Positions 8,410 through 64,000 of a stretch of 64,000 nt of DNA are shown piece by piece. The DNA lies in the NCBI GenBank assembly GCA_016182905.1, contig JACPFR010000005.1, forward strand, positions 12,185-76,184, written 5' to 3'. A program made the translations under genes and the position numbers. The DNA is from Elusimicrobiota bacterium. Its GTDB lineage: Bacteria; Elusimicrobiota; Elusimicrobia; UBA1565; UBA9628. The notes beneath the pieces were generated by a model, which ran no database searches, was not told the DNA's origin, and worked only from the letters and a program-made list of their open reading frames with translations. Position 1 is the first letter of the stretch; each line of letters starts with the position of its first letter.

Positions 8410-8531
8410 GCGCGAAAGAATATGTCTTTCCACGCGACGCGTCATGAGGCATTCGCTCTAGAAGCGCGGCAGGCGCGCGGCGAATAAAAATAGGAAGTCT
8501 CGCTTCCTCTCGATCTGCTAAAATTCCCCTC

Positions 8532-9389: not shown

Positions 9390-9787
9390 AGGCCGGCACT
9401 GACCGCGCAGGCCGCTTGAGCGCCGCCTAAAGGGACGCCGGCGACGCCTCCGCCGCGGGGACCTGGAGCGCGCTGAGCAAGCCGGGGCCGAAGCCTCCCT
9501 TGAAGGCCGCCAGCGCCACGGCGAGAAGATGCACGGGCGAGGCGCCCGGCACGGCTTCCGGGGGCAGCCGCGAGATGAAGAGAGCGGCCAGAACCGAGAC
9601 CGCCGCGGCGGCGAGCCATTGCTTCACATCCTCTCCGTTCATAGAACGCAAATATTACATGCCGGGCCGACCGATCGGGAATGGACGGAATGTCAGGGCC
9701 TGATGACGTTCCTGCGACCGCCGCTTTTCCGGAAGGTTCACATCTCCTCCATGGCGCTTCATGAGGCGGCTTCGCTAAAACCGGACC

Positions 9788-10741
9788 ATGAACGCTTTCA
9801 AGCAATTGAGCCGCTGGCTGGCGCCCGATGCAAACCACGAATCCGCCGATGCTCTCACCCATTACAGCCATTTGCTGGCCAGTTTGTTGACCATGGCCTG
9901 GTTCGTCGAAGCGCGCGACCCTTATACCGGCGGGCATCTGTGGCGCGTGTCGCGTTATGCGCGGCTGCTGGCGGAGGATGCCGGTTACGGCGATGCCGAT
10001 GCGGCGCGGATCAGTCTCGGCGGGTTTTTGCACGATCTGGGAAAAATCGGCGTGCCCGATGCGATCCTGCGCAAGCCTGAACGTCTGACCGACGACGAGT
10101 ATGCGGTCATCAGGACCCACCCGGATATCGGCATGCGCATGCTCGCCGGCCATCCGCTGGCCCGACTCGTCAGCGACGCCGTGTTTTTGCATCACGAGCG
10201 CCCTGACGGCAAGGGTTATCCGCGCGGCCTGGTTGGCGGCGCGATTCCCGAAATGGCGCGCATCGTCGGCATCTGCGATGCGTTTGACGCGATGACCAGC
10301 CATCGCCCTTATCGACCCGGCATGCCGCGCGACAAGGCCGTCGCCGTCATTCGCGAATTTCGCGGAACGCAGTTTGACGCCCGCTTTGCCGACGTCGTCA
10401 TCGCGCTGGGCGCGGCGGGAAGCCTCGACCATGTGATGGGCCATAGCGATACGGGCATCCCGCTGAGGTCGTGCCCCATGTGCGGCCCCACTTTGGTGGT
10501 GCAGCGCGAGCACCGGCGGGGCGATCACATCTACTGCCGCAACTGCAGCGGCGAATTCGTACTGGAAGAAGAAGACAACTTCCTGGTGGCGGCCCCTACC
10601 GGCAAGCAAGGCCGCGCCGTTGACCTGGAACCCGAAGCCGATACGGCGCTGATCGCACGCACGGTACGCGCGGCTGCAGAAGCGTTGCCTATTGCGGATA
10701 TGCTCAGATCTTCAGCCCTGCCGCTCGGAGCCGGTCGATGA
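9788..10741 (+). CDS. HD-GYP domain phosphodiesterase with C-terminal zinc-ribbon
   Basis: HD..LHDLGK..HHERPDGKGYP..DAFDAMTSHRPYR motifs. C-terminal CPMCG...CRNCSG. Confidence 0.85.
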   Translation: MNAFKQLSRWLAPDANHESADALTHYSHLLASLLTMAWFVEARDPYTGGHLWRVSRYARLLAEDAGYGDADAARISLGGFLHDLGKIGVPDAILRKPERLTDDEYAVIRTHPDIGMRMLAGHPLARLVSDAVFLHHERPDGKGYPRGLVGGAIPEMARIVGICDAFDAMTSHRPYRPGMPRDKAVAVIREFRGTQFDARFADVVIALGAAGSLDHVMGHSDTGIPLRSCPMCGPTLVVQREHRRGDHIYCRNCSGEFVLEEEDNFLVAAPTGKQGRAVDLEPEADTALIARTVRAAAEALPIADMLRSSALPLGAGR

Positions 10742-11061
10742 AGTTTTTCACCCGCTGGGTTGTCAGAGCGAAAATGAGGACCTGCTACTGTCATATCCCG
10801 CCGGATCTCTTGGTCGAGCTCGTCCGGGCGAAGTTCTTCGACCGCGTTCCCACTATCGAGCTCGTGAAGAGGTATCCGAGCGAGCGCGAGCGGGAGTACG
10901 TCCGCACGATCGCGCTGCTGGACGTGCCGGAAGCCGAGGTCCGCGAGCTTCTGAAAGGCGACGCCGCGTTCCTGGCGCACTTCCTGGACTGCCGTCGGCA
11001 CGCGCTTCAGGTCTTGAAGGGGAGGATGAACGACCTCGAGGCGCACCTGAGATCGGCTTAG
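10738..11061 (+). CDS. Hypothetical protein
   Basis: ATGA overlap with the HD-GYP stop. Helical charged protein. No family recognised. Confidence 0.4.
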   Translation: MKFFTRWVVRAKMRTCYCHIPPDLLVELVRAKFFDRVPTIELVKRYPSEREREYVRTIALLDVPEAEVRELLKGDAAFLAHFLDCRRHALQVLKGRMNDLEAHLRSA

Positions 11062-11384
11062 GTGGAAAAACCGATGCGGTGCAGCCCCTCCTGCGCGGGC
11101 AGTTCCGCCGTCCCCATCGGGAAGGCGACGGCCGATATGATGACGCCGGCCGGGATGAAGACGTGGGCATGGCAGAAGTCCTCGCCCTTCGCGTCGGGAA
11201 GCTTGCCCGTCCCGGCGGGGCAGACGCTGAACCGGGGGCTGTCGAGCCAGAGACCGTGGCTTTCGACCTTGTGCACGGTGGCCAGCAGCGGGGAGCCGTT
11301 GATGCCGAGCGGTCTCAGCCGCGAGACGACATCGTCGGAAAGGACGAGGATGACCTGCTTGCCCTTCAAGTCGTAGTCGAACAT
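11058..11384 (-). CDS. Hypothetical protein (last gene of the bufferin-type operon string)
   Basis: 108-aa ORF MFDYDLKGKQVILVLSDD... in the same strand series as the buf genes. Confidence 0.45.
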   Translation of the reverse strand: MFDYDLKGKQVILVLSDDVVSRLRPLGINGSPLLATVHKVESHGLWLDSPRFSVCPAGTGKLPDAKGEDFCHAHVFIPAGVIISAVAFPMGTAELPAQEGLHRIGFST

Positions 11385-11465
11385 GGGCCTCCGTGACTCT
11401 CCGCGCTCTCTCCAGTTCGTCTCGTCCGCGGGCCGAACGTTACAGCGAGCCTGCTCGAGCGCCCC

Positions 11466-11633
11466 TCATGAGACGGGCTTCAATGTCCCGCCCACGCAGC
11501 TGGAGCAGCGATCCTCGACCGGCGCGCAGCGCGGGCACCACAGCTCCCCGCACTTATCGCACTTCCTCCAGCCCGTCTGCCCGGACTCCGGGCTCATGTT
11601 GCAGTGATTGCACGCCAGCGCGTTGTCTTCCAT
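11466..11633 (-). CDS. Cysteine-rich mini-protein, 55 aa, four CxxC pairs (zinc-ribbon-like)
   Basis: Not in the ORF track (<60 aa). Translation by hand: MEDNALACNHCNMSPESGQTGWRKCDKCGELWCPRCAPVEDRCSSCVGGTLKPVS. GGAGG RBS 4 nt upstream. 29 bp after the CMD gene stop. Confidence 0.5.
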   Translation of the reverse strand: MEDNALACNHCNMSPESGQTGWRKCDKCGELWCPRCAPVEDRCSSCVGGTLKPVS

Positions 11634-11662
11634 GATGCCTCCTTCTTTGGTTGCCCCTCGCG

Positions 11663-12208
11663 TCAGCCCTTCGTCGCCGGCGCGAACTCCAGCTCCGCGC
11701 CCAGGTTCTTGCCGATTCGTTGAATGAAGTTCCCGGCCGCCACGACGAAGGCGAGCTCGGCGATCTCCTTGGGTGAGAAGTTCCGTTTGAGCGCCTCCAA
11801 GGCCTGGTCATCGGCCTTGATCACTTGCGTGGTCTGGTAGGCGAAGCGGATCACGGCGCGTTCCGCCTCATTGAACGCGGGGTTGTCGAATCCCTGCGGC
11901 CCCAGCAAGGCGATTTGCGCGTCGGTCAGGCCCGCCGCTTTCCCCATCGGGACGTGGTGGCCCTGACAGTAGGCGCACTCGTTGGCGCGGGCGACGGTCA
12001 GGTAGGCGATCTCCCGCACGCGCGGCGTCAGCGAGAGCTTGTTGAAGTAGACATCGAGGAGGCCGCCGAAGGCCTGGGTGACGGGCCCGGAGTGACCGAC
12101 GAGCTTGACGACGTTGGGCACCATTCCGAATCCCTTCTTGAGGTTCTCATAGACCGGCTTGGCTTCGGGAGCTTCCTGTCCTTCGTGAGCGTAGGTCGTT
12201 CGCGGCAT
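11663..12208 (-). CDS. CMD/AhpD-like family protein
   Basis: CAYCQGHH motif and AhpD-like fold signature. Immediately downstream of the DUF2063 gene. Confidence 0.75.
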   Translation of the reverse strand: MPRTTYAHEGQEAPEAKPVYENLKKGFGMVPNVVKLVGHSGPVTQAFGGLLDVYFNKLSLTPRVREIAYLTVARANECAYCQGHHVPMGKAAGLTDAQIALLGPQGFDNPAFNEAERAVIRFAYQTTQVIKADDQALEALKRNFSPKEIAELAFVVAAGNFIQRIGKNLGAELEFAPATKG

Positions 12209-12288
12209 GTCGATTCCTCCTGTACGTCATCCAAGGCGGACGTCGGCGGGTCCGGGACCGAGAGACCCGGACCCGCCGACGGGCCGTC

Positions 12289-13146
12289 TTAACAGCCGCC
12301 CACTTTCGTCATGGGGTCCTTCCGAGTCGGCGGCTCGATTCCTTTGATAAGGCCGCGGGCGACCCAAGATGAGAACCAGCGGCGGACCTCGGCGGCCCCG
12401 GCAACGCCCACCGACTTCGAGGCGCGGGCAAGCACGGCGCCAAGCCGAGCCCCTTCCTTGAGCCGTCGCAGCGTAATCCACTCCAGCCTGGAAATCTCAT
12501 ACACCTTCACCCAGGTCTCATCTCGAAAGAGCAGCAGCCATTGCGCCCGATCATTGCGGAGGATTTTGCCTCCGGCCTTAAGGGGAAGCTCGCGGCGGCG
12601 CCAAAGACGCTCGACGGGCCAATCGACTTTGAGGAGCAGGACCGTCGGATCCAGGATCAGTCTCACGCGCGCCCAATCCTCGTCCCGAATATTTCCGATG
12701 GTTTTAGGATCGAGGGGGAGCAGGCGATCGGCGAAAAGCCGGGTCATGGCGTCCCGCTCGAGCCGGGAGAGGTCCGCCAGGAACGGGTATTTCCGGCCGA
12801 GCGGATGGGAGCGCACGAAGCGAGGAAGGGCCGCGCCTAGATCCGCCAGAGAGGACGACCTCGATGGATTCGAGAGGAGGTAGTCGGCGACGAGAACGCG
12901 AAATTCGTATTCGCCCAGCGTCCTTCTCACGGCGGGGAAATCTGAGGTCAAGGCCTCGTGCAGGCGCAGAAAATAGCCGTCGCCATAGACGCTCAGACGC
13001 GTCGGCGCATCTAGCGGGGGGGGATCTGTGATCCAGCGCAGCGCCGCGGGTCTATTCTTCACGGCCGCCCGCACGCCTTGCGGGTCAGTGAATATCTCTC
13101 GTAAGGATCGCTGGAGACGGGCCAGGTTAGGCGGCGACGGCGGCAT
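12289..13146 (-). CDS. bufC: DUF2063 family protein (MNIO partner, BufC-like)
   Basis: Start MPPSPPNLARLQRSL overlaps the DUF692 gene end by 20 nt. DUF2063-type sequence. The listed N-terminal extension is unsupported. Confidence 0.7.
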   Translation of the reverse strand: MPPSPPNLARLQRSLREIFTDPQGVRAAVKNRPAALRWITDPPPLDAPTRLSVYGDGYFLRLHEALTSDFPAVRRTLGEYEFRVLVADYLLSNPSRSSSLADLGAALPRFVRSHPLGRKYPFLADLSRLERDAMTRLFADRLLPLDPKTIGNIRDEDWARVRLILDPTVLLLKVDWPVERLWRRRELPLKAGGKILRNDRAQWLLLFRDETWVKVYEISRLEWITLRRLKEGARLGAVLARASKSVGVAGAAEVRRWFSSWVARGLIKGIEPPTRKDPMTKVGGC

Positions 13147-13963
13147 CGCGCACCTCCGTGGCCCGCGCCGCTTCGCGCTGAAGCCGCGCAAAGGACGGTA
13201 TCTTGTCATCCCATTCGATGAGCGTCGGCACGCGCCCGAAGCGCCGGATCGCCGCCGCATAGAGCTCCCAAACCGGGTCCGAGACCGGATGATCGTGCGT
13301 GTCGATAAGAAAGCCTCCCTCGTCGGAGTAGCCGGCCAGATGCATCTGCCCTACCCGTTTCAACGGTATGGCGTTGATGTAATCGAGAGCGTCGAAGCCG
13401 TGGTTCACGGCGCTGACGTGGATGTTGTTGACGTCCATCAGTATCCCGCAGTCGGCGCGGGCGGCGATCTCCGCCAGAAACTCCCATTCCGGCATCTCGG
13501 AGTGCCGATAGGTCAGATAGCTGGAGACGTTTTCGATGAGAATCCGGCGGCCGAGGTATTCCTGCACTCGTCTCAGGCGCGCGGCGACATGGTCGACGAC
13601 CGCTTCGGTGTAGGGCAGTGGAAGCAGGTCATGAAGATTCCGCCCGCCGACCCCCGTCCAGCAAAGATGATCGGACACGATGGCGGGCTCGATGATACGG
13701 ATGAGGCTCTTGAGCCGTTTCAGATAGTTCCGGTTCAAAGGATCGGCTGAGCCGATGCTGAGCGAGACGCCGTGAAGCATCACCGGATAGTCGCGGCGGA
13801 CGCGCCCGAGCACCTCGAGGGGCCGTCCCCCTGAGGAGCCGCCCCGCAGTCCCATGTAGTTCTCGGAGTTCACCTCGAACCAGGAGACCGCGGGACGGCG
13901 TGAGAGCACATGATCGTAGTGGGCGGGCCGCAGTCCGAGGCCGACGCCGAGTTCCGGGTTCAT
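13127..13963 (-). CDS. bufB: DUF692/MNIO (multinuclear non-heme iron oxidative) enzyme, BufB/MbnB-like
   Basis: Start MNPELGVGLGLRPAHY with AAGGAGAG RBS. TIM-barrel DUF692 motifs HLSIGS, DHLCW, IENVSSY, MDVNNIHV. Confidence 0.8.
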   Translation of the reverse strand: MNPELGVGLGLRPAHYDHVLSRRPAVSWFEVNSENYMGLRGGSSGGRPLEVLGRVRRDYPVMLHGVSLSIGSADPLNRNYLKRLKSLIRIIEPAIVSDHLCWTGVGGRNLHDLLPLPYTEAVVDHVAARLRRVQEYLGRRILIENVSSYLTYRHSEMPEWEFLAEIAARADCGILMDVNNIHVSAVNHGFDALDYINAIPLKRVGQMHLAGYSDEGGFLIDTHDHPVSDPVWELYAAAIRRFGRVPTLIEWDDKIPSFARLQREAARATEVRDAAVAA

Positions 13964-13986
13964 GTCTCTCCTTGAGGCCGCCGGTC

Positions 13987-14313
13987 CTACTTGCTGCCCA
14001 GGTCCTTCATCGGCTCGGCGCCGGTCTTCGCGGCCTTCTTCTCCGGAGGAGTCAGCGTCCCTCCTTCGATGTTCTCGCAGGACTCCTTGGGCATGTACAG
14101 CCAGCCCTGGCCCTTGCAGGAGTTCTTTCCCGCGCATTCGTGCCCCGGGCCGCCGCATTGCCCGTGGCCGCCGCACTTATTGACGCCGTAGCACTTGACG
14201 TTCTTGTCGCTCTTCTTGGCCTTCGACTCCTTGGCCCAACTCGGCGTCGACACGACCGCCGCTCCGACGATTCCCGCCACCGCCGCCTTCAATAACATGT
14301 TGCCTTTCGCCAT
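13987..14313 (-). CDS. bufA: DUF2282-type secreted Cys-rich RiPP precursor (bufferin BufA1-like)
   Basis: AAGGAGG RBS. Sec signal peptide MAKGNMLLKAAVAGIVGAAVVSTPSWA. Core KCYGVNKCGGHGQCGGPGHECAGKNSCKGQGWLYMPKESCENIEGGTL matches the DUF2282 CYGV...C...CAG...VPKG.CE.I.GG pattern. Confidence 0.8.
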   Translation of the reverse strand: MAKGNMLLKAAVAGIVGAAVVSTPSWAKESKAKKSDKNVKCYGVNKCGGHGQCGGPGHECAGKNSCKGQGWLYMPKESCENIEGGTLTPPEKKAAKTGAEPMKDLGSK

Positions 14314-14403
14314 TTGTTCAGCGCCTCCTTTTCTTATTGATGAATGCCTGACCCACCGATTTTAGTGCGTTTGGACGCGGAAACGTTACATGCCCGAGGT
14401 GAA

Positions 14404-15144
14404 TTATTTGTCGCAACGCGCCGTCGAGCCCCCGCGCTCATTCCGCTCTCCCGTCCAGGGGTCGACGCCGTCCCCGACGGGCATCCGGAGAAGATCCTCG
14501 ATGATGAGGTCTTGAATGGCCGCGCGTGAATGGGGCGCGGCGCTCTCGCCTGAGAACAGGCGTCGCGCGAGCGCCTTCAGGTCGCCGAAGGTGTCCACAT
14601 CGGAGCGCACGGACAGGAGCCGGAAGCTTTCGCCGCGCAGGCGCTCGAGTGTTCGATTGAGAACATCGGGGCCCGACCACTCCATCTTCGCGAAGAGGCG
14701 CGGCATGGGCGCGCGCAGACCGATGAGATAATAGCCGCCGTCCTCGGCGGGGCCCAGGACGGCCTGGACGTCATCGAGGCGCGCGAAGGCCTGGCGCAAA
14801 ATATCGGGCTCCAAGTCGGGGCAGTCGCTGCCGATGACGACGACCTTCTCGGCGCCCGCGCGAAAGGCCTTGTCGAAGGCCGCGACGAGGCGCGCGCCGA
14901 GGTCGCCTTCCGCCTGCGGGAACCACGGCGGCGCGTCCTCGAGCCAGGCCAGGCCGGGGCGTTCGGGGTGCGGCTCGTAAGCGATCGAGACGGCCGCCTC
15001 GCTCGTCAGCCGGGCGCAGGCGACCGTATCCCGCACGAAGGCTTCGTAGACGCGGGCGACCTGCGAGGCGGAGAGAGGAATCTGGAGACGAGTCTTGACC
15101 TTCCCAGGGACCGGCGCCTTGACGAAAAGGATCAGCGAGTTCAT
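14404..15144 (-). CDS. TIGR04282-type rSAM/selenodomain-associated transferase 1 (DUF2064)
   Basis: Start MNSLILFVKAPVPGKVKTRL, ATGA-coupled to the upstream GT2 gene. Family hallmark N-terminus. The listed upstream extension is an artefact. Confidence 0.7.
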   Translation of the reverse strand: MNSLILFVKAPVPGKVKTRLQIPLSASQVARVYEAFVRDTVACARLTSEAAVSIAYEPHPERPGLAWLEDAPPWFPQAEGDLGARLVAAFDKAFRAGAEKVVVIGSDCPDLEPDILRQAFARLDDVQAVLGPAEDGGYYLIGLRAPMPRLFAKMEWSGPDVLNRTLERLRGESFRLLSVRSDVDTFGDLKALARRLFSGESAAPHSRAAIQDLIIEDLLRMPVGDGVDPWTGERNERGGSTARCDK

Positions 15145-15824
15145 GAATAAAGCCTCCTCAGCCTCTCCGGCGAGACCCCGGCCTTGAAGAGCGCGATGAT
15201 GACGACATTTCTCAGGGCGTTGAACACGGGACCGTTGCGCTCGTAGCGCCGCACCGAGGTCAGCACGGCATCCTCCATGACGACGACGGGGCCCAGCCTC
15301 GCGAGCATGGGGAGCAGGTAATACTCCTCCATGATGCTGACGGGCGGGTATCCTCCGACGCGCACGTAGTCTTCCCGCCTGCAGGCGACCGCCTGATCGC
15401 CGTGCGGCACCCCGGTCTTCCGCGAGCGCCAATGCCCCAAAGCGGCGATGAGCCGGTAGATCGGCCTCGCCGAATCGAAGTCGAGGCGGTAGGCGGTCGC
15501 GCCCGGCCGCGGCTTGGCGGCCCAGGCGTCGAGCAGCGCGCCGAGCCAGCCTCCGGGCAGGCGGGTGTCGGCGTGCAGGAACAGAAGAAGGTCTCCGGCC
15601 GCGGCAAGAGCGCCTCGATGCATCTGCACCGCCCGTCCGCGCGCGGGAGACTCGATCAGCTTGTCGGCGACGCGGCGGGCGATCTCGATCGTGCCGTCCG
15701 TGCTGCCGCCGTCGGCCACGATGATCTCGATGTCGCCTTTGCCGGCGGTCAGGCGCAGGCGCGCGACCGCCTCCTCCAGGCGCCGGCGTTCGTTGACGGT
15801 CGGGATGACGACGGAGACCTTCAT
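15141..15824 (-). CDS. Glycosyltransferase family 2, TIGR04283-type rSAM-associated transferase 2
   Basis: Start MKVSVVIPTVNE. GT2 motifs. ATGA overlaps on both sides. Confidence 0.7.
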   Translation of the reverse strand: MKVSVVIPTVNERRRLEEAVARLRLTAGKGDIEIIVADGGSTDGTIEIARRVADKLIESPARGRAVQMHRGALAAAGDLLLFLHADTRLPGGWLGALLDAWAAKPRPGATAYRLDFDSARPIYRLIAALGHWRSRKTGVPHGDQAVACRREDYVRVGGYPPVSIMEEYYLLPMLARLGPVVVMEDAVLTSVRRYERNGPVFNALRNVVIIALFKAGVSPERLRRLYS

Positions 15825-16540
15825 GGCGCGGACCTCGCGGTCTTCGCCATCCACTGGATCAGGCCCGCCGTCAGGGCCGGGCCGGAGACGGGACGGGAGA
15901 GGATATCGGTGCCGTGTCCTCCGACGGACAGCCGCAGGCGTTTGACCGGGCCCGCGACAGAGGAGGCCAGGCGGCCCGCGATCGCGTCGAAATCGGGGTC
16001 GTCGGCGGCGGAGGTGACGAAGAGAGGCCGCCGGCCGTAGGCCGCGACAAATTCCGAGACCGGAACGCGCTTGGGATTGTCGCCCGGGGAGATCAATGCC
16101 GCGCCGCCGAGACGGGGGTCGGAGGCGGCGCGGCGGAAAGCCAGGGATGCGCCGATGCTGGCGCCGCCCAGGAAGATCGAAGAGGGGGAAAAACCGCGAC
16201 CTTCGAGCCAGGCGACGGCGGCGGCGGGATCGCGGTCTACCTCGCGCCAGCGGGCTTTATCCCAGTCACCGGGACCCTGCCCGTAGGGATTCGCGCTGTC
16301 ACCATGACCGCGAGGATCGAGCAAGAGTACGGCTATCCCGGACGCCGCGGCCTTGACCGCGGACGGCTCCCAGTCCTTGCGCGCGCCCCCGAGCATGGGC
16401 ATGAGCACGAGGACGGCGCCGGGAACGCCGGCGGACTCGTGGTAGGTCGCGGCAAGCGCGACGCCGTCCTCCGTTTTGAGAACGACCTCGATCGGGGCCG
16501 CGGCGACCGCGGCGACGGCGAGAGGGGCCAAGAATATCAT
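15821..16540 (-). CDS. Secreted alpha/beta hydrolase (dienelactone hydrolase-like)
   Basis: Signal peptide MIFLAPLAVAAVAAAP. Nucleophile elbow GGASIGAS. Confidence 0.6.
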   Translation of the reverse strand: MIFLAPLAVAAVAAAPIEVVLKTEDGVALAATYHESAGVPGAVLVLMPMLGGARKDWEPSAVKAAASGIAVLLLDPRGHGDSANPYGQGPGDWDKARWREVDRDPAAAVAWLEGRGFSPSSIFLGGASIGASLAFRRAASDPRLGGAALISPGDNPKRVPVSEFVAAYGRRPLFVTSAADDPDFDAIAGRLASSVAGPVKRLRLSVGGHGTDILSRPVSGPALTAGLIQWMAKTARSAP

Positions 16541-16998
16541 CGCGCGACCTCCGCGAGCGAGCGGCGCGCGGCCGCGCTCACCGACTCGTTCTCATCGGCG
16601 AGCGCGGCCGAAAGGTACTGCGCGGCGGCCGGGTCGCGGCGCTCACCGAGGGCCTGGGCAGTCTTGACCCGGACCCACCAGTGACGGTCGCGCAAGGAAC
16701 GGGAGAGCGGGAGCAAGGCGTCTTTGCGCGACACCCGCCCCAGGGCCCGCGCCGCGTTGGCGCGCACTTCCCACCTCGGGTCGCCCAGCGCCTTGACCAA
16801 CGGCCAGTAGGAGCCGTCGGGGCGGCGTTCTCCGAGTTGGAACGCCGCCCGCTGACGGATATCGGATGAGGCGTCCGTCAGGGCGGCGGCCAGGCGCGCC
16901 TCGTCCCAGGACGCGTCCGGACGCGCCCCGGGTCCGCAGGCGGCCAGGGCCGTCAGCAGCATGTACGGGAAAGACGACTCGGCCGTCATGCGGCGCAT
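16537..16998 (-). CDS. HEAT-repeat (PBS lyase-like) protein
   Basis: Repeated ...VRANAARALG... / ...VRVKTAQALG... units. Start at M74/M77 of the listed ORF, with ATGA overlap to the arsS stop. Confidence 0.55.
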   Translation of the reverse strand: MRRMTAESSFPYMLLTALAACGPGARPDASWDEARLAAALTDASSDIRQRAAFQLGERRPDGSYWPLVKALGDPRWEVRANAARALGRVSRKDALLPLSRSLRDRHWWVRVKTAQALGERRDPAAAQYLSAALADENESVSAAARRSLAEVAR

Positions 16999-17876
16999 GA
17001 CCCGCCTCCGAGCACGCAGAACGAGGCGCAGTGCGGGTGCCGCAGGGCGACCGGACGCCACGACTCCCGCACGGTCCGGCCGAGCTCGAAGCGCGCGTCG
17101 TAGGGGATGAGCGTGCAGGCGACGACGGCCGGGCGCTCCGCGCCGCGGCGCTTGACCACCATGCGCGAGGAGGCGCACATCACCGACTCGGGCGACTTGC
17201 CGAGCAGACCCCAGCACTCGGCGGTGATCTCGGGAAGCTCGCCGGAAGCACCCATCTCGGGGAACACCGTCAGCTCGACCTCCCGGCCGATCGCGCGGCG
17301 GTACCCTTCCCGCGCGGCGGCTTCATCCTCGTCGACGAAGGTCCGCCCGGCCACGGAGGCGCTAAATCCCGAGTCGAGCAGCCACCGCAGGCCGGCCACG
17401 GCCTTGTCGAAGGCGCCGGCGCCGCGTTCGGCGTCGTGGACGGCGGCGGTGTGATGGTCGAGCGAGACGCGCAGGCGCAAACCGCGATCGTGCCGCTCGA
17501 GCAAGGCGAGCAGCTCCGCCTTGCGGTTCGTCATCGGCGCCATCGCGTTCGTGAGAATCAAGACCGAAAAGCCCCGCTCCAGGGACTCCTCGGCCATGGC
17601 GAGAAGATCGGGGTTCATGAACGGCTCGCCGCCGGTGAATCCGATCTCTGTCGCTCCCATCTCCCGGGCCTCCTCGAGAAAGGGCCGGATCTCGGCCGAC
17701 TTCAGATACTCGAGACGATCATTGCGCGGGGAGGACTCGATGTAGCAATTCGCGCATTGGATGTTGCACCGGGTCCCCGTGTTGAACCACAGCGTTTTCA
17801 ACGCGCCGGGCGGCACGACGGCGCGGGCCTTTCCCTGGGCCGTGGTCTCGGCGTCGGCCCACTTAGCAGCAGGCAT
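16986..17876 (-). CDS. arsS: Radical SAM protein, arsenosugar-biosynthesis ArsS-like
   Basis: CNIQCANCY (CxxxCxxC) rSAM motif. Adjacent to arsM and the rSAM-associated transferases 1/2. Confidence 0.7.
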   Translation of the reverse strand: MPAAKWADAETTAQGKARAVVPPGALKTLWFNTGTRCNIQCANCYIESSPRNDRLEYLKSAEIRPFLEEAREMGATEIGFTGGEPFMNPDLLAMAEESLERGFSVLILTNAMAPMTNRKAELLALLERHDRGLRLRVSLDHHTAAVHDAERGAGAFDKAVAGLRWLLDSGFSASVAGRTFVDEDEAAAREGYRRAIGREVELTVFPEMGASGELPEITAECWGLLGKSPESVMCASSRMVVKRRGAERPAVVACTLIPYDARFELGRTVRESWRPVALRHPHCASFCVLGGGSCAA

Positions 17877-18909
17877 CGCCGTTCCTCGCTTTCGTCGAGA
17901 ACGGCATGTTCGTCCCGCAGCCCGGGAAGATGCCGAAATGCTTCGTCGTGTCGCCGAAGAAGTCGAAGTGGCGGCGGTAGCGGCTCTTTTCGAGCATCGA
18001 CGCGGTGTTGCCGCACACCGTCATGATCCGCCCGGCCTCGAAGCGGTGATGGCCGTCGAGCTGAAACGCCTGCGGCGCGTCCGCGATCGTCCCTTTATAC
18101 CTCACGGCCTGGCCGTAGTCTTCGCAGGCGGGCTCAAGACCCGTGAGCTTGAACAGCCGGTAGGTCGCCGAGTAAAAGCCGATGTGGCCGGCGCGCTCCC
18201 GGATCGGGCCCTTGTCGAGAGCCAGCGGCCGCGACTCGACGAGCCGCGGGTCGGCGAAGCCCGCGCTCTTGGCGAGAGGAAGAAAATCGCTCCAATACAA
18301 CGCGCCTCCCAGGCATTCTCCGTACAGCACGGGGTCGTTCCTCAATTCCTGAGGTACGCGTCGGTCGGCGTAGACGTCAGAGAAATACATCTCGCCGCCT
18401 TCCTTGAGAACGCGCCGGGCCTGGCGCAGGACAGCCGCCTTGTCGCGCGCGAGGTTGATCACGCAGTTGGACACGACCAGGTCGAACGAGGCGTCCTTGA
18501 GGCCGATCTCATCGAGGCGCGAGATGTCGCCTTTGATGAACTCCACGTTCCCGTAGCCGAACGCCTTCGCGTGATGCGCGCGGTTGCGCTCGGCGACCTC
18601 GAGCTGCTCGTCGGTCATGTCGACGCCGGTCACGCGTCCCGCTCGGCCGACCAGTTGGGAGAGGACATAGCAGTCCCGTCCGGAGCCGGAGCCAAGGTCG
18701 AGGACGCTCAGACCCGTCAGCTCGCTCGGGATGGTCAGGCCGCAGCCGTAGTAGCGGGAGACGACCTCCTCGCTCACCCTCGATAGCGCCGCGCGCACGG
18801 CGCGCGGCAGGTCCGAAGGCGAGCAGCAGGCGTCGGTTTTCAGGTCGGCGCCGCTTTTCAGGGTCTTTCCGTAATAGTCGCGGACTCCGGCTTCGATGTC
18901 GGCGGGCAT
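17863..18909 (-). CDS. arsM: Arsenite S-adenosylmethionine methyltransferase ArsM
   Basis: VLDLGSGSGRDCY SAM motif I. Conserved Cys DACCSP, NCVINL and a C-terminal Cys. Confidence 0.85.
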   Translation of the reverse strand: MPADIEAGVRDYYGKTLKSGADLKTDACCSPSDLPRAVRAALSRVSEEVVSRYYGCGLTIPSELTGLSVLDLGSGSGRDCYVLSQLVGRAGRVTGVDMTDEQLEVAERNRAHHAKAFGYGNVEFIKGDISRLDEIGLKDASFDLVVSNCVINLARDKAAVLRQARRVLKEGGEMYFSDVYADRRVPQELRNDPVLYGECLGGALYWSDFLPLAKSAGFADPRLVESRPLALDKGPIRERAGHIGFYSATYRLFKLTGLEPACEDYGQAVRYKGTIADAPQAFQLDGHHRFEAGRIMTVCGNTASMLEKSRYRRHFDFFGDTTKHFGIFPGCGTNMPFSTKARNGDACC

Positions 18910-18941
18910 AAGTCAAACCTCCATGGAAATATCAGCCGTCA

Positions 18942-19934
18942 TCACAAAAGATGTAGATGCGTTAAAGTCCAGTAGGCCGCCACGCCGATCACTCCGGCGG
19001 TCGGCAAGGTCACGAGCCAGGCCAGCGCGATCTGGCCGACCATGGCCCGGTTCACTCCGGCCGACCCCTTGCGCAGGCCCATGCCCATGATCGCGGAGCT
19101 CGACACATGGGTCGTCGAGACCGGGAAGCCGTGGAGGGCGGTGCCCACGACCATCGCGGTCGTGGCGAGATTGGCCGCGAAGCCCTCCAGATGATCCATC
19201 TTGGCGACCTTGTGCGCGAGGGTGTCGGTGACCGCGAGCCCCAGGATGATCCCGCCCGCCGCGTTGGCGACGGCGAGGACGAGGAAGAACCAGCGCGGCG
19301 CCACCGTCGCGCTGGGATCGAGCACGGCGTAAAAGAAGAAGCCGAGACCGGCGATCTTCGGGGTGTCGTTCAAGCCCCGCGCGAAGCCGCTCGAAATCGC
19401 GCTCGCCCAATGCGCCCAGTGGCAATTAAGACAGTACTGTTCGCGGCAGAGCCAGTTCAATCCGCGGAACAACAGCCAGGCCGTGCCGAACGCGGCGACG
19501 GGCGAAAGCAGCAACGGTAAGGCGACTTTCTTCCACACGCTTCCCCAAAGCACCTGGTCGAAGCCGAAGGCGTACAGGCCGGTCAGGAGCGTGGCGCCCA
19601 CGATGGCGTGCGTGGTCGAGACCGGCATGCCGATACGCGTCGACAGCAGGACCCAGCCGACCGCCCCGGCGAGGATGGCGAGCGCGAAGGTCTGGTTGAG
19701 CTGAACCTGAGGGGAGAGCATTCCCGTGGTGAAGAGCAAGGTCATCTTCACGGCCCAGGCGGAGGCGAGCACAGCGCCGGCCGCGACGGCCAGAGAAGCA
19801 ACGACGACGGCCTTCTTGTAATCCGACTCTCCGCTCCCGACCAAGGTCGCGATCGACTTGGAGATGTCGTTGGCGCCGTTGGCGAAGGCGAGGCCGGCGG
19901 CGGTGGTCAGTCCCACGACGGCGACGATGTTCAT
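18942..19934 (-). CDS. Inorganic phosphate transporter, PiT family
   Basis: GANDISKSIATLVGSG PHO4 signature, present twice. Confidence 0.85.
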   Translation of the reverse strand: MNIVAVVGLTTAAGLAFANGANDISKSIATLVGSGESDYKKAVVVASLAVAAGAVLASAWAVKMTLLFTTGMLSPQVQLNQTFALAILAGAVGWVLLSTRIGMPVSTTHAIVGATLLTGLYAFGFDQVLWGSVWKKVALPLLLSPVAAFGTAWLLFRGLNWLCREQYCLNCHWAHWASAISSGFARGLNDTPKIAGLGFFFYAVLDPSATVAPRWFFLVLAVANAAGGIILGLAVTDTLAHKVAKMDHLEGFAANLATTAMVVGTALHGFPVSTTHVSSSAIMGMGLRKGSAGVNRAMVGQIALAWLVTLPTAGVIGVAAYWTLTHLHLL

Positions 19935-21286
19935 TTGATCTCCACGGTCATTAAGTGAGTCCGTCCGGGCCGCCGTTCGTTACACGCGTTGTAAAGACCT
20001 CGGCCGAGCAGGCCGTAGACCACGGCGTATTCGCCGATCCACAGCCAGCGCCACCACGGCAGGCGAGCCGACGATTCTCTCAGCGCGGGATCGATCGCGA
20101 AATACATGAAGCCGACGATCCAGGCCCAGGCCAAGGCGGCCGGCGAGGGAGTCAGGAGGGCGAACGGCAAGGCCCAGAGCACGTACCAGGGCTGGACCAC
20201 GGGACTGGCAAGGAGGACGGCGAGGATCATCCCGCACAGGTAGCGTACGGCGTCCTCGCCGCAGCGCCGGGCCCATGGCAGGCTGAACGTGATGACGATC
20301 AGTACGAGGAGGAGCCGTCGCAAGGAGGGGGATTCGACGAGAGTCGACAAGGCGGCGTACAGGCTGGGATTAGCCAGCCAGTCGGATGCGAACGCGGCGA
20401 TGCCGCTCTCAGGTACGGCGTGCAGCGCCGCGGCAAGACCGGAAACGACCGGAATCAGGCCGAAGCATGCGACTGAGAGAAAAACCACCGCGTAGCGCGG
20501 GCGCCGAAGGAACAGCCATGGCAGCAGGACGATCGGGACGACTTTCACCAGCGCCGCCGCCGCCCATACCGCGGCGCCGATTCCGCGGCGCCCGGATTCC
20601 CACAGGTCGAGGCCGGCAAGGAGCCCGAGGATCATCAGGGAGTCGAGATGCCCCGCCGCCGAGAACTCGACGAGCACGAGGGGATGCCAGGCGTAGACCG
20701 CGGCCCAAGCGACGGACAAACCGCGGCGGCGCAGAAGCCGCATGAGCAGGACGCAGGCAAGGAGGTCGCAGAGGGAGAAAAATCCCTTTTGGGCTCGCGC
20801 GTCGGCCGTGACGGCGGCGACAATACGGAAAGCCGCCAGGGCCAACGGGGGATAGATCGCGGTCAGGCCCTGATTGTTGATCCGTTCGTCCTGTCCTTGG
20901 CGAAGGAACGCGAGATCCGGAGAAGACGGCGGGAGAAGATAGGGATTGCGTCCCGCGTTGGCGACCCGGCCCTCCCATGAATATCGATAGGCGTCGGTCG
21001 ATGGGGTCGGGGGAACGAGAACGAGCGCAAGACGACAGAAAGCCGCGACGACGAGGATAAGCGCCTTCCGATCGCCCTCGTCCTTCCCAGGATGAGGCTC
21101 ATGCGCAAGCCTTCGCCAGGTCAGCCACGACACGCAGGTCCAGAGGGCCAAAACGCACAGGAACGCCGGAACATGGTCCACCAGCGGAGCCCGGAGGGCC
21201 AACGCGACGGCGCCGAGCGCCGAGGCAAGGCCGGCTCGAAGCAGAATACGGGTCACCAGAGTGAGTCCGCGCCGGCGGAGGAACAT
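19931..21286 (-). CDS. Integral-membrane glycosyltransferase, GT87/DUF2029-like
   Basis: ~10 TM helices. ATGA-coupled to the PiT gene. Confidence 0.6.
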   Translation of the reverse strand: MFLRRRGLTLVTRILLRAGLASALGAVALALRAPLVDHVPAFLCVLALWTCVSWLTWRRLAHEPHPGKDEGDRKALILVVAAFCRLALVLVPPTPSTDAYRYSWEGRVANAGRNPYLLPPSSPDLAFLRQGQDERINNQGLTAIYPPLALAAFRIVAAVTADARAQKGFFSLCDLLACVLLMRLLRRRGLSVAWAAVYAWHPLVLVEFSAAGHLDSLMILGLLAGLDLWESGRRGIGAAVWAAAALVKVVPIVLLPWLFLRRPRYAVVFLSVACFGLIPVVSGLAAALHAVPESGIAAFASDWLANPSLYAALSTLVESPSLRRLLLVLIVITFSLPWARRCGEDAVRYLCGMILAVLLASPVVQPWYVLWALPFALLTPSPAALAWAWIVGFMYFAIDPALRESSARLPWWRWLWIGEYAVVYGLLGRGLYNACNERRPGRTHLMTVEIK

Positions 21287-21307
21287 TACAGAGGTCTGAC
21301 TCCATAC

Positions 21308-22147
21308 CTAAAGCACGCTGGGCGCGATTTCCTCCACCATGTCGCCGATCAGATCAGGATCACTGTCAGGAGCCAACATGCCGGCATCGCCCATCTTTCC
21401 GGTCATCTCCAGCTTGAAGGCATCGCCGGTCTTGCGCAGGCGCGACTCGCCCCCGCAGGCGCGGCAATAAATGCATTCGCCGCCATGCTGGGCGCGACGC
21501 AGCGCGATCGGCGCGCTGCATGAGGGACAGCCTTGCAGCGGAAGTCCCGGCTCGCTGTGTCCGACGATGCAAGCGACCTCCGAAGAACGATCCCATGCCA
21601 GGGCGTGCCGTCCGAATTGAGCGTCGAACTGGCCGCCGAGCTCGTCGCCGATGACGGTCAATGCCTTCGCCATCGGCATTCCCTTTCGATAGGGACGAGC
21701 GCTGGTCATGGCATCGAAGGCGTCGGCGATGCCGACGATGCGCGCGACTTCGGGGATCGCCTCGCCCGCGATGCCGCTCGGATAGCCCTTGCCGTCCGGA
21801 CGCTCGTGATGACCGACCACGGCATCCATCGCCAGACCGGCAAGCGGATGATGCGACAGCAGCCGTCCGCCGACCGTCAGGTGGGTTTTCATGACGGCGT
21901 ATTCAGCATCGGCCAGGCGATCCCGTTTGTTGAGGACCGAATCCGGCACGCCGACCTTGCCGAGGTCGTGCAGGAAGCCGCCGATCTCGCACAGCGCGAC
22001 ATCGCGGGGGGACAACCCGGACTGCCGCGCCAGCAGCTTCGAGAGCTGAGAGACGCGCCACAGGTGTCCTCCGGTATAAGGGTCGCGCGCTTCGACGATC
22101 ATCGCCGAACCCAGCAAGGCATGCAGCAACGATTCTTTTTCCGCCAT
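21308..22147 (-). CDS. HD-GYP phosphodiesterase with C-terminal zinc-ribbon (paralog of 9788..10741)
   Basis: Same motifs as the first copy (HHERPDGKGYP; CPSCS...CRACGG). Stretches of identical DNA with the first copy. Confidence 0.85.
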   Translation of the reverse strand: MAEKESLLHALLGSAMIVEARDPYTGGHLWRVSQLSKLLARQSGLSPRDVALCEIGGFLHDLGKVGVPDSVLNKRDRLADAEYAVMKTHLTVGGRLLSHHPLAGLAMDAVVGHHERPDGKGYPSGIAGEAIPEVARIVGIADAFDAMTSARPYRKGMPMAKALTVIGDELGGQFDAQFGRHALAWDRSSEVACIVGHSEPGLPLQGCPSCSAPIALRRAQHGGECIYCRACGGESRLRKTGDAFKLEMTGKMGDAGMLAPDSDPDLIGDMVEEIAPSVL

Positions 22148-22230
22148 GATACGCCCCCCTGCTCACGGAAGTCTAATCCGGGCGGCCGGGCGCCGGCCAT
22201 AGCGGGCGCGTGAATTAATTTTAACGGCCC

Positions 22231-22262
22231 TTGACTCAATACCCAGGTATTGGGTCTATACT
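22231..22262 (+). promoter_or_regulatory. MerR-type promoter/operator: -35 TTGACT, 20-bp spacer with dyad CAATAC-C-CAG-GTATTG, -10 TATACT
   Basis: Read directly from the sequence upstream of merR1. A long spacer with a palindrome is the MerR-family signature. Confidence 0.7.
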
Positions 22263-22279
22263 GGAAGCAAGGAGGCGCG

Positions 22280-22687
22280 ATGAAAGAATATCTGACGGTC
22301 GGAAAGGTCGCCCGGCAGGCCGGAGTCAACCTGCAGACCGTTCTTTATTACGAGAGGCGGCGCTTGCTGTCGCCGGCCCGGCGCTCCGACTCCGGCTACC
22401 GCTTATACGCGCCGGAAACGGTGCGCGTCATCCGCTTTATTAAGAATGCCCAGGCGTTGGGCTTTACGCTCGAAGAGGTCGCCAAGCTCTTGCGGCTGAG
22501 GGTCAACCATCGCAGCCAATGCGAATCGGTCAAGCGGCAGGCCCGATCGCGGTTGGAGCTGGTGCAGGAGAAGATCGGGGGATTGAGGGCGATGGAAAGG
22601 ACTCTGAAGCGGCTGCTCAAGACTTGCACGGCGCGCGGCACTACGGACTCCTGCCCGATCCTGGAAAGTCTGGAATCAAGGAGATGA
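22280..22687 (+). CDS. merR: Hg(II)-type MerR family transcriptional regulator
   Basis: Start MKEYLTVGKV with AAGGAGG RBS. Cys81/Cys117/Cys126 spacing identical to MerR Hg-binding cysteines. Confidence 0.85.
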   Translation: MKEYLTVGKVARQAGVNLQTVLYYERRRLLSPARRSDSGYRLYAPETVRVIRFIKNAQALGFTLEEVAKLLRLRVNHRSQCESVKRQARSRLELVQEKIGGLRAMERTLKRLLKTCTARGTTDSCPILESLESRR

Positions 22688-22691
22688 TCAT

Positions 22692-23279
22692 ATGGACAAG
22701 AAATTCGTCGGATTGGCGGCGCTGGCTTCGGCCGGACTGGCCTCGGTGTGCTGTCTCGGTCCACTCGTCGTGACGGGCCTGGGGCTGGGAAGCTTGGGTC
22801 TGGCGGCGGGCTTGACCAAGTACAGACCGCTCTTCCTGGCGCTGACCGGCATCATCCTCGCCGTCGCCTTCTACCTCGCCTATCGCAGACGTTCCGTGAC
22901 GTGCGTCGACGGCAGCTGCGAGCTCCGCTCGGGCAGCCGGGCGATGAAGGCCGGCGTGTGGACGTTGGCGGCGCTGGCGGCGGCCATGGCGACTTTCCCA
23001 AGTTGGTCGGGGCGATTCGTCTCAAGCGCTCCGGTCGCCGTCCCGGCGGGGACTCAAGTCCTGTCCCTGAAAGTCACTGGCATGGACTGCGAGGCCTGCA
23101 CCGCGGCGATCAAGCAGTCGGTGGAGAAGGTGCCGGGCGTCCTCTCGGCGCGTATCGACTTCACCGGACAGCGGGCGACGGTCGTTTCCGACGGCAACGC
23201 CGATCCCAGGGCGGTGATTCAAGCCGTGGCGACCGCAGGATACAAGGCCGAATTGATCAACGGAGGCGGTCATGACTAA
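22692..23279 (+). CDS. merT: MerT mercuric transport protein fused to C-terminal HMA (MerP-like) domain
   Basis: TM1 with GLASVCCLGP (MerT CC motif). Second Cys pair CVDGSC. C-terminal GMDCEAC HMA domain. Confidence 0.8.
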   Translation: MDKKFVGLAALASAGLASVCCLGPLVVTGLGLGSLGLAAGLTKYRPLFLALTGIILAVAFYLAYRRRSVTCVDGSCELRSGSRAMKAGVWTLAALAAAMATFPSWSGRFVSSAPVAVPAGTQVLSLKVTGMDCEACTAAIKQSVEKVPGVLSARIDFTGQRATVVSDGNADPRAVIQAVATAGYKAELINGGGHD

Positions 23280-23736
23280 TCCTGACGAGCACGAGGCGTG
23301 CTGCCGTCTTCCGGCCGTCGCCCTTGCCTGTCCCGTCTGCGGCAAGCAAGGCCGAAAGGTGGGGAAAGAAACCTTGGATCAGCACTTAGCTCCCGGGCCG
23401 CGGGCTCTGCTTGGTGATGAAGCCGGCTTCTGTCCGAACCCGGCCTGCGAGGTCGTGTACTTCGACGGTACCGCAACCGTCCGCAAGGGCGAAACGTTGC
23501 ATGCCGTCACGCAGAAGGATCCGGGCGATGAAGTCTTCGTGTGCTACTGCTTCGAACATAAGCGCGGCGACCTGAGGCGCGATCTGGCGGAGAAAGGCAT
23601 GACGGACATTCCGGACCGGGTCAAGCGGGGTGTTAAGGAAGGGCGCTGCGATTGCGCGCGAAAGAACCCGCAGGGAGCCTGCTGCCTGGGCAATATCGTT
23701 GCGGCGATCAACGAGATAAAAGGAAAAAAATCATGA
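23272..23736 (+). CDS. CopZ-N-terminal-domain-like Cys-rich metal-binding protein (zinc-ribbon + putative [2Fe-2S] site)
   Basis: CPVCGK...CPNPACEVVYFD zinc ribbon. C-terminal VCYCFE...GRCDCARKNPQGACC resembles the Archaeoglobus CopZ N-terminal domain. GGAGG RBS. Confidence 0.6.
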   Translation: MTNPDEHEACCRLPAVALACPVCGKQGRKVGKETLDQHLAPGPRALLGDEAGFCPNPACEVVYFDGTATVRKGETLHAVTQKDPGDEVFVCYCFEHKRGDLRRDLAEKGMTDIPDRVKRGVKEGRCDCARKNPQGACCLGNIVAAINEIKGKKS

Positions 23737-24104
23737 AAAGCGCGCTGCTCGCCGTCGGGTTGGCGTTCGCGACGACGGCGGCCGTTGGATCTTCCGTGCT
23801 TGCCGCGAACGTCGCCTCGGACGCCGCGCGGGCGGAGCCGGCCGAACTGTCCGGAGCGGTGCTCGTCCGCGTAAAAGGCATGGACTGCCCCATGTGCGCC
23901 TTCGGCTTCAAGAGGCGGCTCAAGAAACTGCCGGGGGCTGAGGCCGTGCGGCTCGACTATAAGGCAGGCACGGCGCGCATCACGTTTAAGTCCGGCGCAC
24001 GGATCAATCCGGACGATATCCGCAAATCCGTCAAGGACGCCGGATTCGAGGCGATCGAGATCGGCCCGGCCATACCGGCGCAGATCAAAGGAGAAAAACA
24101 ATGA
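23733..24104 (+). CDS. Periplasmic heavy-metal-associated (HMA/MerP-like) protein
   Basis: Start MKSALLAV (ATGA overlap). Signal peptide. GMDCPMC motif. Confidence 0.8.
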   Translation: MKSALLAVGLAFATTAAVGSSVLAANVASDAARAEPAELSGAVLVRVKGMDCPMCAFGFKRRLKKLPGAEAVRLDYKAGTARITFKSGARINPDDIRKSVKDAGFEAIEIGPAIPAQIKGEKQ

Positions 24105-62953: not shown

Positions 62954-62954
62954 A

Positions 62955-63896: not shown

Positions 63897-64000
63897 GCTA
63901 ATGAGCGCGTCTCTCACAACTCCGTCGCCTGCCGTCAGGCTAGCGACAATGGGAACGGTGCTGTTCACCCTCCTTTGTGTCGGCATTGCCACAGCGGCCG

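Follow-up and report, generated by a model that had tools for sequence, protein, structure and literature searches.

A mosaic operon linking ArsM, an unnamed radical-SAM family and two transferase families to bufferin genes in an Elusimicrobiota genome

A 64,000-nucleotide (nt) stretch of the metagenome-assembled genome of an uncultured Elusimicrobiota bacterium (assembly GCA_016182905.1, contig JACPFR010000005.1, positions 12,185 to 76,184; hereafter the window) carries an operon in which the gene for an arsenite methyltransferase (ArsM) overlaps that of an enzyme of the radical S-adenosylmethionine (SAM) type. Genes for two transferases, of the families TIGR04283 and TIGR04282, and a set of bufferin genes follow downstream. 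We interpret this operon as a mosaic that makes an arsenosugar-like complex organoarsenical and is plugged into a metal-stress operon, a reading to which we give an even chance of being correct. An initial annotation of the window had already proposed the synthesis of a glycosylated organoarsenical, which is retained here as the best single reading. The gene order, coupling, family calls and continuity with the bufferin genes described there were also supported, whereas the label ArsS given to the radical-SAM enzyme and the view of the cluster as a single unit were not.

The methyltransferase is a true ArsM of the general AS3MT-like type, belonging to neither named subfamily, because it matches crystallised arsenite methyltransferases over its full length (phmmer against the PDB; 5evj, E = 6e-108, residues 5–334; CmArsM 4fr0, E = 5e-86), aligns with all four catalytic cysteines (4kw7/4fr0 and 5evj; motifs DACC, YGCG, SNCVINL, and GECLGG), and has a 62% identical homologue in Hahella that sits between ArsR and an LMWP ArsC phosphatase. 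In CmArsM, the catalytic, As-binding cysteines are C44, C72, C174, and C224. The ArsM call thus holds despite scores below the NCBIfam cut-offs (PRK11873, 181 vs. 263 bits; AsSugarArsM, 87 vs. 400 bits); the PRK11873 model describes a subfamily over 272 positions and leaves out the ArsM C-terminal domain. A vicinal cysteine pair (..CC) stands at the extreme C-terminus of all 120 of the 120 closest ArsM homologues, including those from ordinary ars operons.

The radical-SAM enzyme is assigned by sequence comparison to a separate, unnamed family (here called G4), a distant sister of ArsS that shares its C-terminal cysteine framework. The cluster motif CxxxCxxC is present as CNIQCANC, with C37, C41, and C44 invariant in 49 homologues. 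Six further cysteines are also invariant, and the tail, HPHCASFCVLGGGSCAA, belongs to a family with the tail consensus HPHCAxFCVLGGASC (HC-x3-C-x6-C). Relatives were found in at least 590 species (GTDB species representatives), mainly marine and soil Alphaproteobacteria, and clustering at 50% identity (E ≤ 1e-30) yielded 183 representatives. The literature searched contains no description of the family, nor is there an NCBIfam or Pfam model for it. An AlphaFold2 model of the enzyme (predicted local distance difference test score, pLDDT, 88.6) is confident save for the last five residues, and its nearest folds suggest a resemblance to the twitch/SPASM-type proteins BlsE, SkfB, and MoaA.

The ArsS model TIGR04167 scores the enzyme at 72.9 vs. 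300 bits and aligns only residues 25–174 with model positions 6–151 of 303. DUF3641 (PF12345) gave no Pfam match even at E ≤ 10, and BLASTP against the ArsS of a Burkholderia glumae plasmid showed 26% identity over residues 25–171 only. The best NCBIfam model was that of the Rv1681 family (108 vs. 380 bits), followed by the ArsS model. Identity with ArsS was rejected on the TIGR04167 score and the undetected DUF3641. Because the protein lies far below the TIGR04167 cut-off and has no detectable DUF3641, it formally falls outside the ArsS clade, a result that the initial annotation had named in advance as refuting its proposal.

What stands of the ArsS-like designation is the CxxxCxxC motif, the ArsS-type neighbourhood, and a full-length distant homology. 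This homology was obtained with a widened G4 profile, to which members of 32%–46% identity were added, with the tails HHRCFSCFAYGASCS and HKRCMACFANGVSCS. The widened profile aligns with ArsS at full length (hhalign, 291 columns, probability 99.6), which we regard as moderate evidence since the ArsS profile comprises four sequences and the hhalign setting was greedy. The C-terminal domain alone aligns with ArsS over 61 columns (E = 9e-5; score 27.4, compared to a maximum of 14.8 over 30 column shuffles), pairing C234, C254, C283, C287, and C294 of the enzyme with C251, C266, C305, C308, and C316 of ArsS, respectively. This alignment indicates distant homology to ArsS, not membership.

Gene neighbourhoods provide a further connection to ArsS. 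In a survey of ~80 loci with a G4 family member, adjoining partners were ArsM (eight distinct loci, across phyla), TIGR04283 or TIGR04283-like GT2 proteins (n = 12), and DUF2064 proteins (n = 9). As the ArsM pairing recurs in eight of these ~80 other-species loci, and also in the form of fusions, the adjacency of the two genes in the window is not a chance event. Divergent TIGR04283-like GT2 genes are found directly 3' of ArsM-G4 in loci L005, L007, and L061. Natural fusions include TIGR04282::G4 (P0361), ArsM::G4-like and G4-like::ArsM proteins with every ArsM cysteine intact, and the combinations Pyr_redox::rSAM, Metallophos::rSAM, and rSAM::HD_3 with a G4-like radical-SAM (rSAM) domain. The accessory genes common to arsS loci (Burkholderia, Thiodictyon, Hymenobacter, and Pseudanabaena) and G4 loci (Sphingomonas and Roseomonas) encode TIGR04282 and TIGR04283 proteins, methylthioadenosine (MTA) phosphorylase (MTAP) or purine nucleoside phosphorylase (PNP), sterol-desaturase-type proteins, DUF547, and a VTT/DedA protein with a MerA-like reductase; the G4 family takes the place of ArsS in the same gene neighbourhood. 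The DUF547-VTT-reductase trio, encoded elsewhere in the window, adjoins arsM/arsS in Pseudanabaena and is also found in L118, L165, L174, Roseomonas, and L097. Among 39 TIGR04283-like metagenome loci with a length of 6 kb or more, collected by scanning with a GT2 alignment, 24 contained DUF2064, ten arsS, seven the VTT-reductase pair, four ArsM, and one G4.

Two plasmids add to this picture. On a Roseomonas haemaphysalidis plasmid (L095), a single run at positions 6043–13003 encodes TIGR04282, DUF547, a TrsS-like radical-SAM protein, the G4 enzyme, a phosphonate-type ABC transporter, and a metallophosphoesterase, so that a second radical-SAM enzyme and an oxyanion importer accompany G4 there. 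On the B. glumae plasmid (L091, 9385–10476), the oxidoreductase encoded after TIGR04282 passes the model TIGR03169, 'N-terminal-to-SelD' (347 vs. 310 bits), which hints that ArsS-type clusters without ArsM may have a link to selenium.

All eight genes annotated between positions 14404 and 21286 are present as open reading frames (ORFs) in the order and on the minus strand originally given (Table 1), with families called by NCBIfam curated cut-offs and Pfam gathering scores. Translational coupling is apparent from ATGA overlaps at five junctions, read from the sequence (GT87/PiT, radical-SAM/HEAT, HEAT/hydrolase, hydrolase/GT2, and GT2/DUF2064), and from a 14-nt overlap in which the arsM stop overlaps the start of the radical-SAM gene, while the PiT and ArsM genes are spaced by 32 nt. 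Start positions were revised for the HEAT (16989, giving the ATGA overlap, or 16998), GT2 (15824), and DUF2064 (15144) genes. The run-on into the bufferin genes is real: the DUF2064 gene and bufA are 90 nt apart, with an AAGGAGG ribosome-binding site, and are even coupled by a 4-nt overlap (ATGA) in the relative L096. No terminator-like site was detected in the intergenic gaps of the operon, the DUF2064-bufA gap included, by a terminator scan that itself performed at chance level, and an Rfam search of positions 10000–24000 returned no element. A promoter scan, also at chance level, gave a single sigma-70-like match (22175–22146) just upstream of the HD_5 gene preceding GT87. This HD-GYP-type gene may be the first of the transcription unit.

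Both transferases match their models from end to end (TIGR04283, positions 1–221 of 221; TIGR04282, positions 1–189 of 189) and pass the cut-offs, and the GT87-like, PiT, and HEAT assignments held as well. TIGR04283 GT2 genes adjoin those of G4-type radical-SAM enzymes in Sphingomonas (231 bits) and arsS on Burkholderia and Hymenobacter plasmids. The DUF2064 protein has a CofC/MobA-like nucleotidyltransferase fold; in NCBI, a protein identical to it (P0241) is annotated as 'TIGR04282 family arsenosugar biosynthesis glycosyltransferase', and one identical to the radical-SAM enzyme as 'radical SAM protein'. PiT is the sole constant partner across the Elusimicrobiota variants L003, L008, L096, and L097, and is also present in the ArsS-type cluster L118. 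In L096 and in L097, the same operon starts with an orthologue of GT87 (85% and 74% identity, respectively; GT87 relatives also match MptA_B_family), and HEAT orthologues are found at the same position (87% and 79%). The HEAT protein has a lipoprotein-type N-terminus with a putative lipobox (LTALAAC), and the hydrophobic N-terminus of the alpha/beta-hydrolase is probably a signal peptide. The hydrolase is only found in the window operon and not in L096 or L097.

Variability of the operon in relatives is concentrated in one place. We found a conserved scaffold (GT87-PiT-HEAT-GT2-DUF2064-bufferin) whose slot after PiT is empty, contains ArsM and G4, or contains a different rSAM::ArsM fusion. The slot is empty in L097 (GT87-PiT-HEAT-GT2-DUF2064-BufABC-CMD, with neither ArsM nor a radical-SAM gene). 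In L096, it holds a SPASM-rSAM::ArsM fusion between PiT and HEAT (6398–8908, 836 amino acids, ArsM domain PRK11873 234 bits), which at 34%–37% identity is not orthologous to the ArsM and radical-SAM proteins of the window; at the downstream end of this operon CMD follows bufA, and BufB and BufC are absent. L003 encodes PiT-ArsM-rSAM by itself, with the transferases absent. The insertion of two different combinations of radical-SAM and ArsM at one point speaks for a functional link with the genes on either side. The occurrence of the scaffold independently of ArsM and the radical-SAM enzyme speaks for a role of the transferases in their absence as well. With the scaffold lacking ArsM and radical-SAM genes in L097 and PiT-ArsM-rSAM lacking transferases in L003, the proposed single biosynthetic unit was not borne out. 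In L008, a 335-amino-acid protein (P0068) encoded between PiT and the BufABC-CMD genes combines an ArsM N-terminus with radical-SAM residues 68–296 and no longer has the CxxxCxxC motif; this hybrid has the look of a degenerate copy. Elsewhere, the same metagenome-assembled genome, which is also the source of L007, contains an intact ArsM-rSAM-GT2 set.

The bufferin link is real and limited to particular lineages: this clade of Elusimicrobiota and plasmids of Burkholderia are the only places where it was seen. A general association of bufferins with TIGR04283 was rejected, as not one of the 39 metagenome loci encoded BufB. The link thus recurs in two phyla, and the bufferin literature searched makes no mention of arsenic, DUF2064, glycosyltransferase, or radical-SAM neighbours.

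A possible route to an arsenosugar-like product can be drawn by analogy with ArsS, which adenosylates dimethylated As(III), DMAs(III) (PMC13598754), with ArsL, whose C-terminal cysteine tail (RCCLKC) binds As(III) (bioRxiv 10.1101/2024.02.01.577332), and with the folds of the families involved. ArsM would convert As(III) to methylated As(III), which the C-terminal thiols of the radical-SAM enzyme may bind. The latter would then add a SAM-derived radical to form an adenosyl-arsenical; by analogy with the action of ArsS on DMAs(III), this radical is most likely 5'-deoxyadenosyl. Once adenine is lost, the arsenoribose could be activated by the nucleotidyltransferase-like DUF2064 protein and passed on to an acceptor by the TIGR04283 GT2, resulting in an arsenosugar-type glycoside. 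GT87, the putative HEAT lipoprotein, and the presumably secreted hydrolase would act on the envelope side, PiT would carry an oxyanion (arsenate/phosphate, or metal-phosphate), and the bufferin genes would be transcribed together with the others in a common response to metal(loid) stress. Only tentatively do we propose that G4 represents a further As–C bond-forming class beside ArsS and ArsL, whose chemistry is wired to the bufferin metallophore system in Elusimicrobiota and Burkholderia.

Several observations weigh against an arsenosugar-like product. Approximately 60 of the ~80 G4 loci contain no ArsM, GT2, or DUF2064 within 10 kb, and the scaffold and bufferin genes of L097 show that the transferases need neither ArsM nor a radical-SAM partner. 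The radical-SAM enzyme fails the ArsS hidden Markov model (73 vs. 300 bits) and has no DUF3641 match, and in hhalign with the narrow family profile the alignment to ArsS was confined to the core, with the C-terminal homology undetected. ArsR, ArsC, and an MTA phosphorylase or nucleosidase are all missing from the 64-kb window, and an MTAP beside a radical-SAM enzyme could merely remove 5'-deoxyadenosine. Furthermore, no characterisation of TIGR04282 or TIGR04283 was found in the literature searched, and the name 'arsenosugar' reflects association only.

The operon may instead be a co-regulated stress island rather than one pathway, its genes sharing an operon because of a common response to metal or oxidative stress. 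ArsM, with or without the radical-SAM enzyme, would then serve detoxification only, PiT would transport phosphate or metal-phosphate, and GT87, HEAT, GT2, and DUF2064 would either modify a glycoconjugate of the envelope or work for the bufferin system. This explanation, which we consider unlikely but worth serious attention, is in line with the separate occurrence of the modules in L097 and L003, with the metal genes surrounding the operon (MerR, MerT-HMA, ECF sigma::NHL::HMA, and a TonB receptor), and with bufferins being part of a copper-stress regulon (PMC11626156). It also agrees with locus L089, where a GT87::polyprenyl-phosphate-sugar-synthase fusion adjoins DUF2064 and no radical-SAM gene is present. 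A TIGR04283 identity for the GT2 domain of this fusion was rejected; because the domain is of the AglJ/dolichyl-phosphate-hexose type, the fusion ties DUF2064 to GT87 and not to TIGR04283. A shared stress response does not readily explain why two unrelated combinations of radical-SAM and ArsM occupy the identical PiT-HEAT slot in the window and L096, why a natural TIGR04282::G4 fusion couples transferase to radical-SAM enzyme, or why arsS is present in ten of the 39 TIGR04283 loci.

It is rather improbable that the radical-SAM enzyme and TIGR04282/3 act on another substrate (Se, Te, Sb, or a non-metalloid lipid or cofactor), with arsenic as a side activity or confined to an ArsM-linked minority, even though the majority of G4 loci lack ArsM, the NCBIfam name of the ArsS family refers to selenoproteins, and the TIGR03169 gene follows TIGR04282 in Burkholderia. 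DedA/VTT, MerA-like, MsrA/B, and thioredoxin partners would likewise suit chalcogen or redox stress, and sterol-desaturase-type genes are recurrent. However, in the window the gene of a genuine ArsM overlaps that of the radical-SAM enzyme, fusions between ArsM and G4 occur in either order with all ArsM cysteines intact, and ArsS, the sole characterised relative, works on arsenic. We would be very surprised to find arsinothricin-like (AST) chemistry, in which the radical-SAM enzyme would cleave the C-gamma–S bond of SAM and attach the 3-amino-3-carboxypropyl group to As(III), followed by methylation by ArsM and export by PiT. The gene order does match arsQML (PMC8552651), the extreme C-terminus is cysteine-rich like the RCCLKC tail of ArsL (bioRxiv 10.1101/2024.02.01.577332), and a permease-ArsM-rSAM triad stands alone in L003. 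Yet the RCCLKC motif is absent from the enzyme, which ends in HPHCASFCVLGGGSCAA instead, and, of its 57 NCBIfam matches, the 25 best (the 25th scoring 38 bits) do not include the ArsL model NF040542, while ArsS ranks second. In addition, ArsM scores 140 vs. 500 bits with the AST-type ArsM model, the partners (TIGR04282/3, MTAP/PNP, and VTT-reductase) are of the ArsS and not the ArsL type, and PiT is unrelated to ArsQ.

Four known systems come closest to the operon. Like cyanobacterial arsM-arsS (Synechocystis type; Pseudanabaena galeata pPg_02, L094), the window combines ArsM with a radical-SAM enzyme that has a cysteine-rich C-terminus ending in HC..C..SC. The VTT/DedA and MerA-like reductase genes that accompany the cyanobacterial pair are 17 kb away in the window, and the TIGR04282/TIGR04283 link is shared with ArsS loci other than this cyanobacterial example. 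In contrast to the cyanobacterial system, the radical-SAM enzyme is from a different family (core-only identity of 26%; 73 vs. 300 bits), ArsM is of the general AS3MT-like type and not an AsSugarArsM (87 vs. 400 bits), and the operon additionally contains PiT, GT87, HEAT, hydrolase, and bufferin genes. The plasmid cluster of B. glumae and B. thailandensis (L090, L091; arsS ... MTA phosphorylase-TIGR04283-TIGR04282-oxidoreductases-DoxX-DUF2063-DUF692-DUF2282), the only other bufferin-linked lineage found, also unites TIGR04283, TIGR04282, a radical-SAM partner, and a bufferin operon within 16 kb. It differs from the window in encoding a true ArsS, MTAP, and an extracytoplasmic function (ECF) sigma/anti-sigma pair, in having a BufA1/DoxX-type bufferin on the opposite strand, and in the absence of ArsM, PiT, GT87, and HEAT from the stretch shown. 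The arsQML genes of Burkholderia gladioli GSRB05 share the transporter-ArsM-rSAM triad and the cysteine-rich C-terminal tail of the radical-SAM enzyme, but ArsL is from the RCCLKC-tail family and moves aminocarboxypropyl, the permease is from another family, and transferases 1 and 2 are absent. Finally, Caulobacter vibrioides buf1/buf2 has a similar set of BufA2 precursor, MNIO maturase BufB, and partner BufC in a metal-stress context, whereas in the window these genes come at the end of a longer operon, a CMD/AhpD-like end gene replacing DoxX.

To our knowledge, ArsS and ArsL are the only radical-SAM enzymes known to make As–C bonds. The arsM and radical-SAM gene pair of the window is a short, expressible candidate from a third radical-SAM family and bears on the question of which organisms outside algae and cyanobacteria make complex organoarsenicals. 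If the proposed function is true, bacterial synthesis of adenosyl-arsenicals or arsenosugar-type compounds would be far wider than the cyanobacterial and algal picture. The operon could also offer a first functional handle on the TIGR04282/TIGR04283 pair, and the variable slot after PiT represents a natural experiment for assigning the roles of the modules.

Table 1. Features of the operon and its surroundings in the window (scores in bits vs. cut-off)
Feature	Position	Strand	Evidence or remark
HD-GYP-type (HD_5) protein	21308–22147	-	HD_5 115; 21 nt upstream of GT87
GT87-family (GT-C type) polytopic membrane glycosyltransferase	19931–21286	-	PF09594 35.4 vs. 25
PiT/PHO4-family inorganic anion transporter, 330 amino acids	18942–19934	-	PF01384 196 vs. 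33.7
ArsM, As(III) SAM methyltransferase, 348 amino acids, C-terminus CC	17863–18909	-	phmmer vs. PDB
Radical-SAM enzyme, unnamed family G4, 296 amino acids	16986–17876	-	PF04055 61.7
HEAT-repeat protein	16537–16989	-	HEAT_2 93
Alpha/beta-hydrolase	15821–16540	-	Hydrolase_4 31.4 vs. 27 (weak)
TIGR04283-family GT2 glycosyltransferase ('transferase 2')	15141–15824	-	215.7 vs. 182
TIGR04282-family DUF2064 protein ('transferase 1')	14404–15144	-	189.8 vs. 134
BufA2-type bufferin precursor	13987–14313	-	NF050166 67.7 vs. 60; DUF2282 27.6 vs. 22.4
BufB, MNIO maturase	13127–13963	-	NF050167 382.9 vs. 310
BufC, DUF2063	12289–13146	-	PF09836
CMD/AhpD-like protein	11663–12208	-	PF02627
DUF547 - VTT/DedA - pyridine-nucleotide-disulfide oxidoreductase operon	36305–39189	+	17 kb from operon
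MerR-family regulator and MerT::HMA fusion	22250–23279	+	Divergent, upstream of operon
ECF sigma::NHL::HMA protein, 595 amino acids	24653–26440	+	ECF sigma regions 2 and 4, NHL repeats, C-terminal HMA
HD_5 (HD-GYP-type) paralogue	9788–10741	+	C-terminal Cys-rich extension
ORF of ~107 amino acids	10738–11061	+	No Pfam match
ORF of ~107 amino acids	11058–11384	-	No Pfam match
Giant ORF, 4589 amino acids	49184–62953	+	fn3, Big_13, and Big_7 matches only

Metal-related genes surround the operon. Divergently upstream lie genes for a MerR-family regulator and a MerT::HMA fusion, followed by one for a protein combining ECF sigma regions with NHL repeats and an HMA domain, and this trio also flanks the operon in L096; a TonB receptor is a further metal gene in the vicinity. 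The operon is bracketed by genes for two paralogous HD_5 proteins, each with a C-terminal cysteine-rich extension, and HD_5 genes recur near the TIGR04283 loci L088, L128, L151, and L155. Downstream of the bufferin genes, two convergent ORFs of ~107 amino acids have a coding-like G+C content at third codon positions, and the pair is kept at this position in L086 and L087. Further along the window, the giant ORF probably encodes a surface or adhesin-like protein of huge size, and just past this ORF the G+C content drops to 0.54 (62001–64000).

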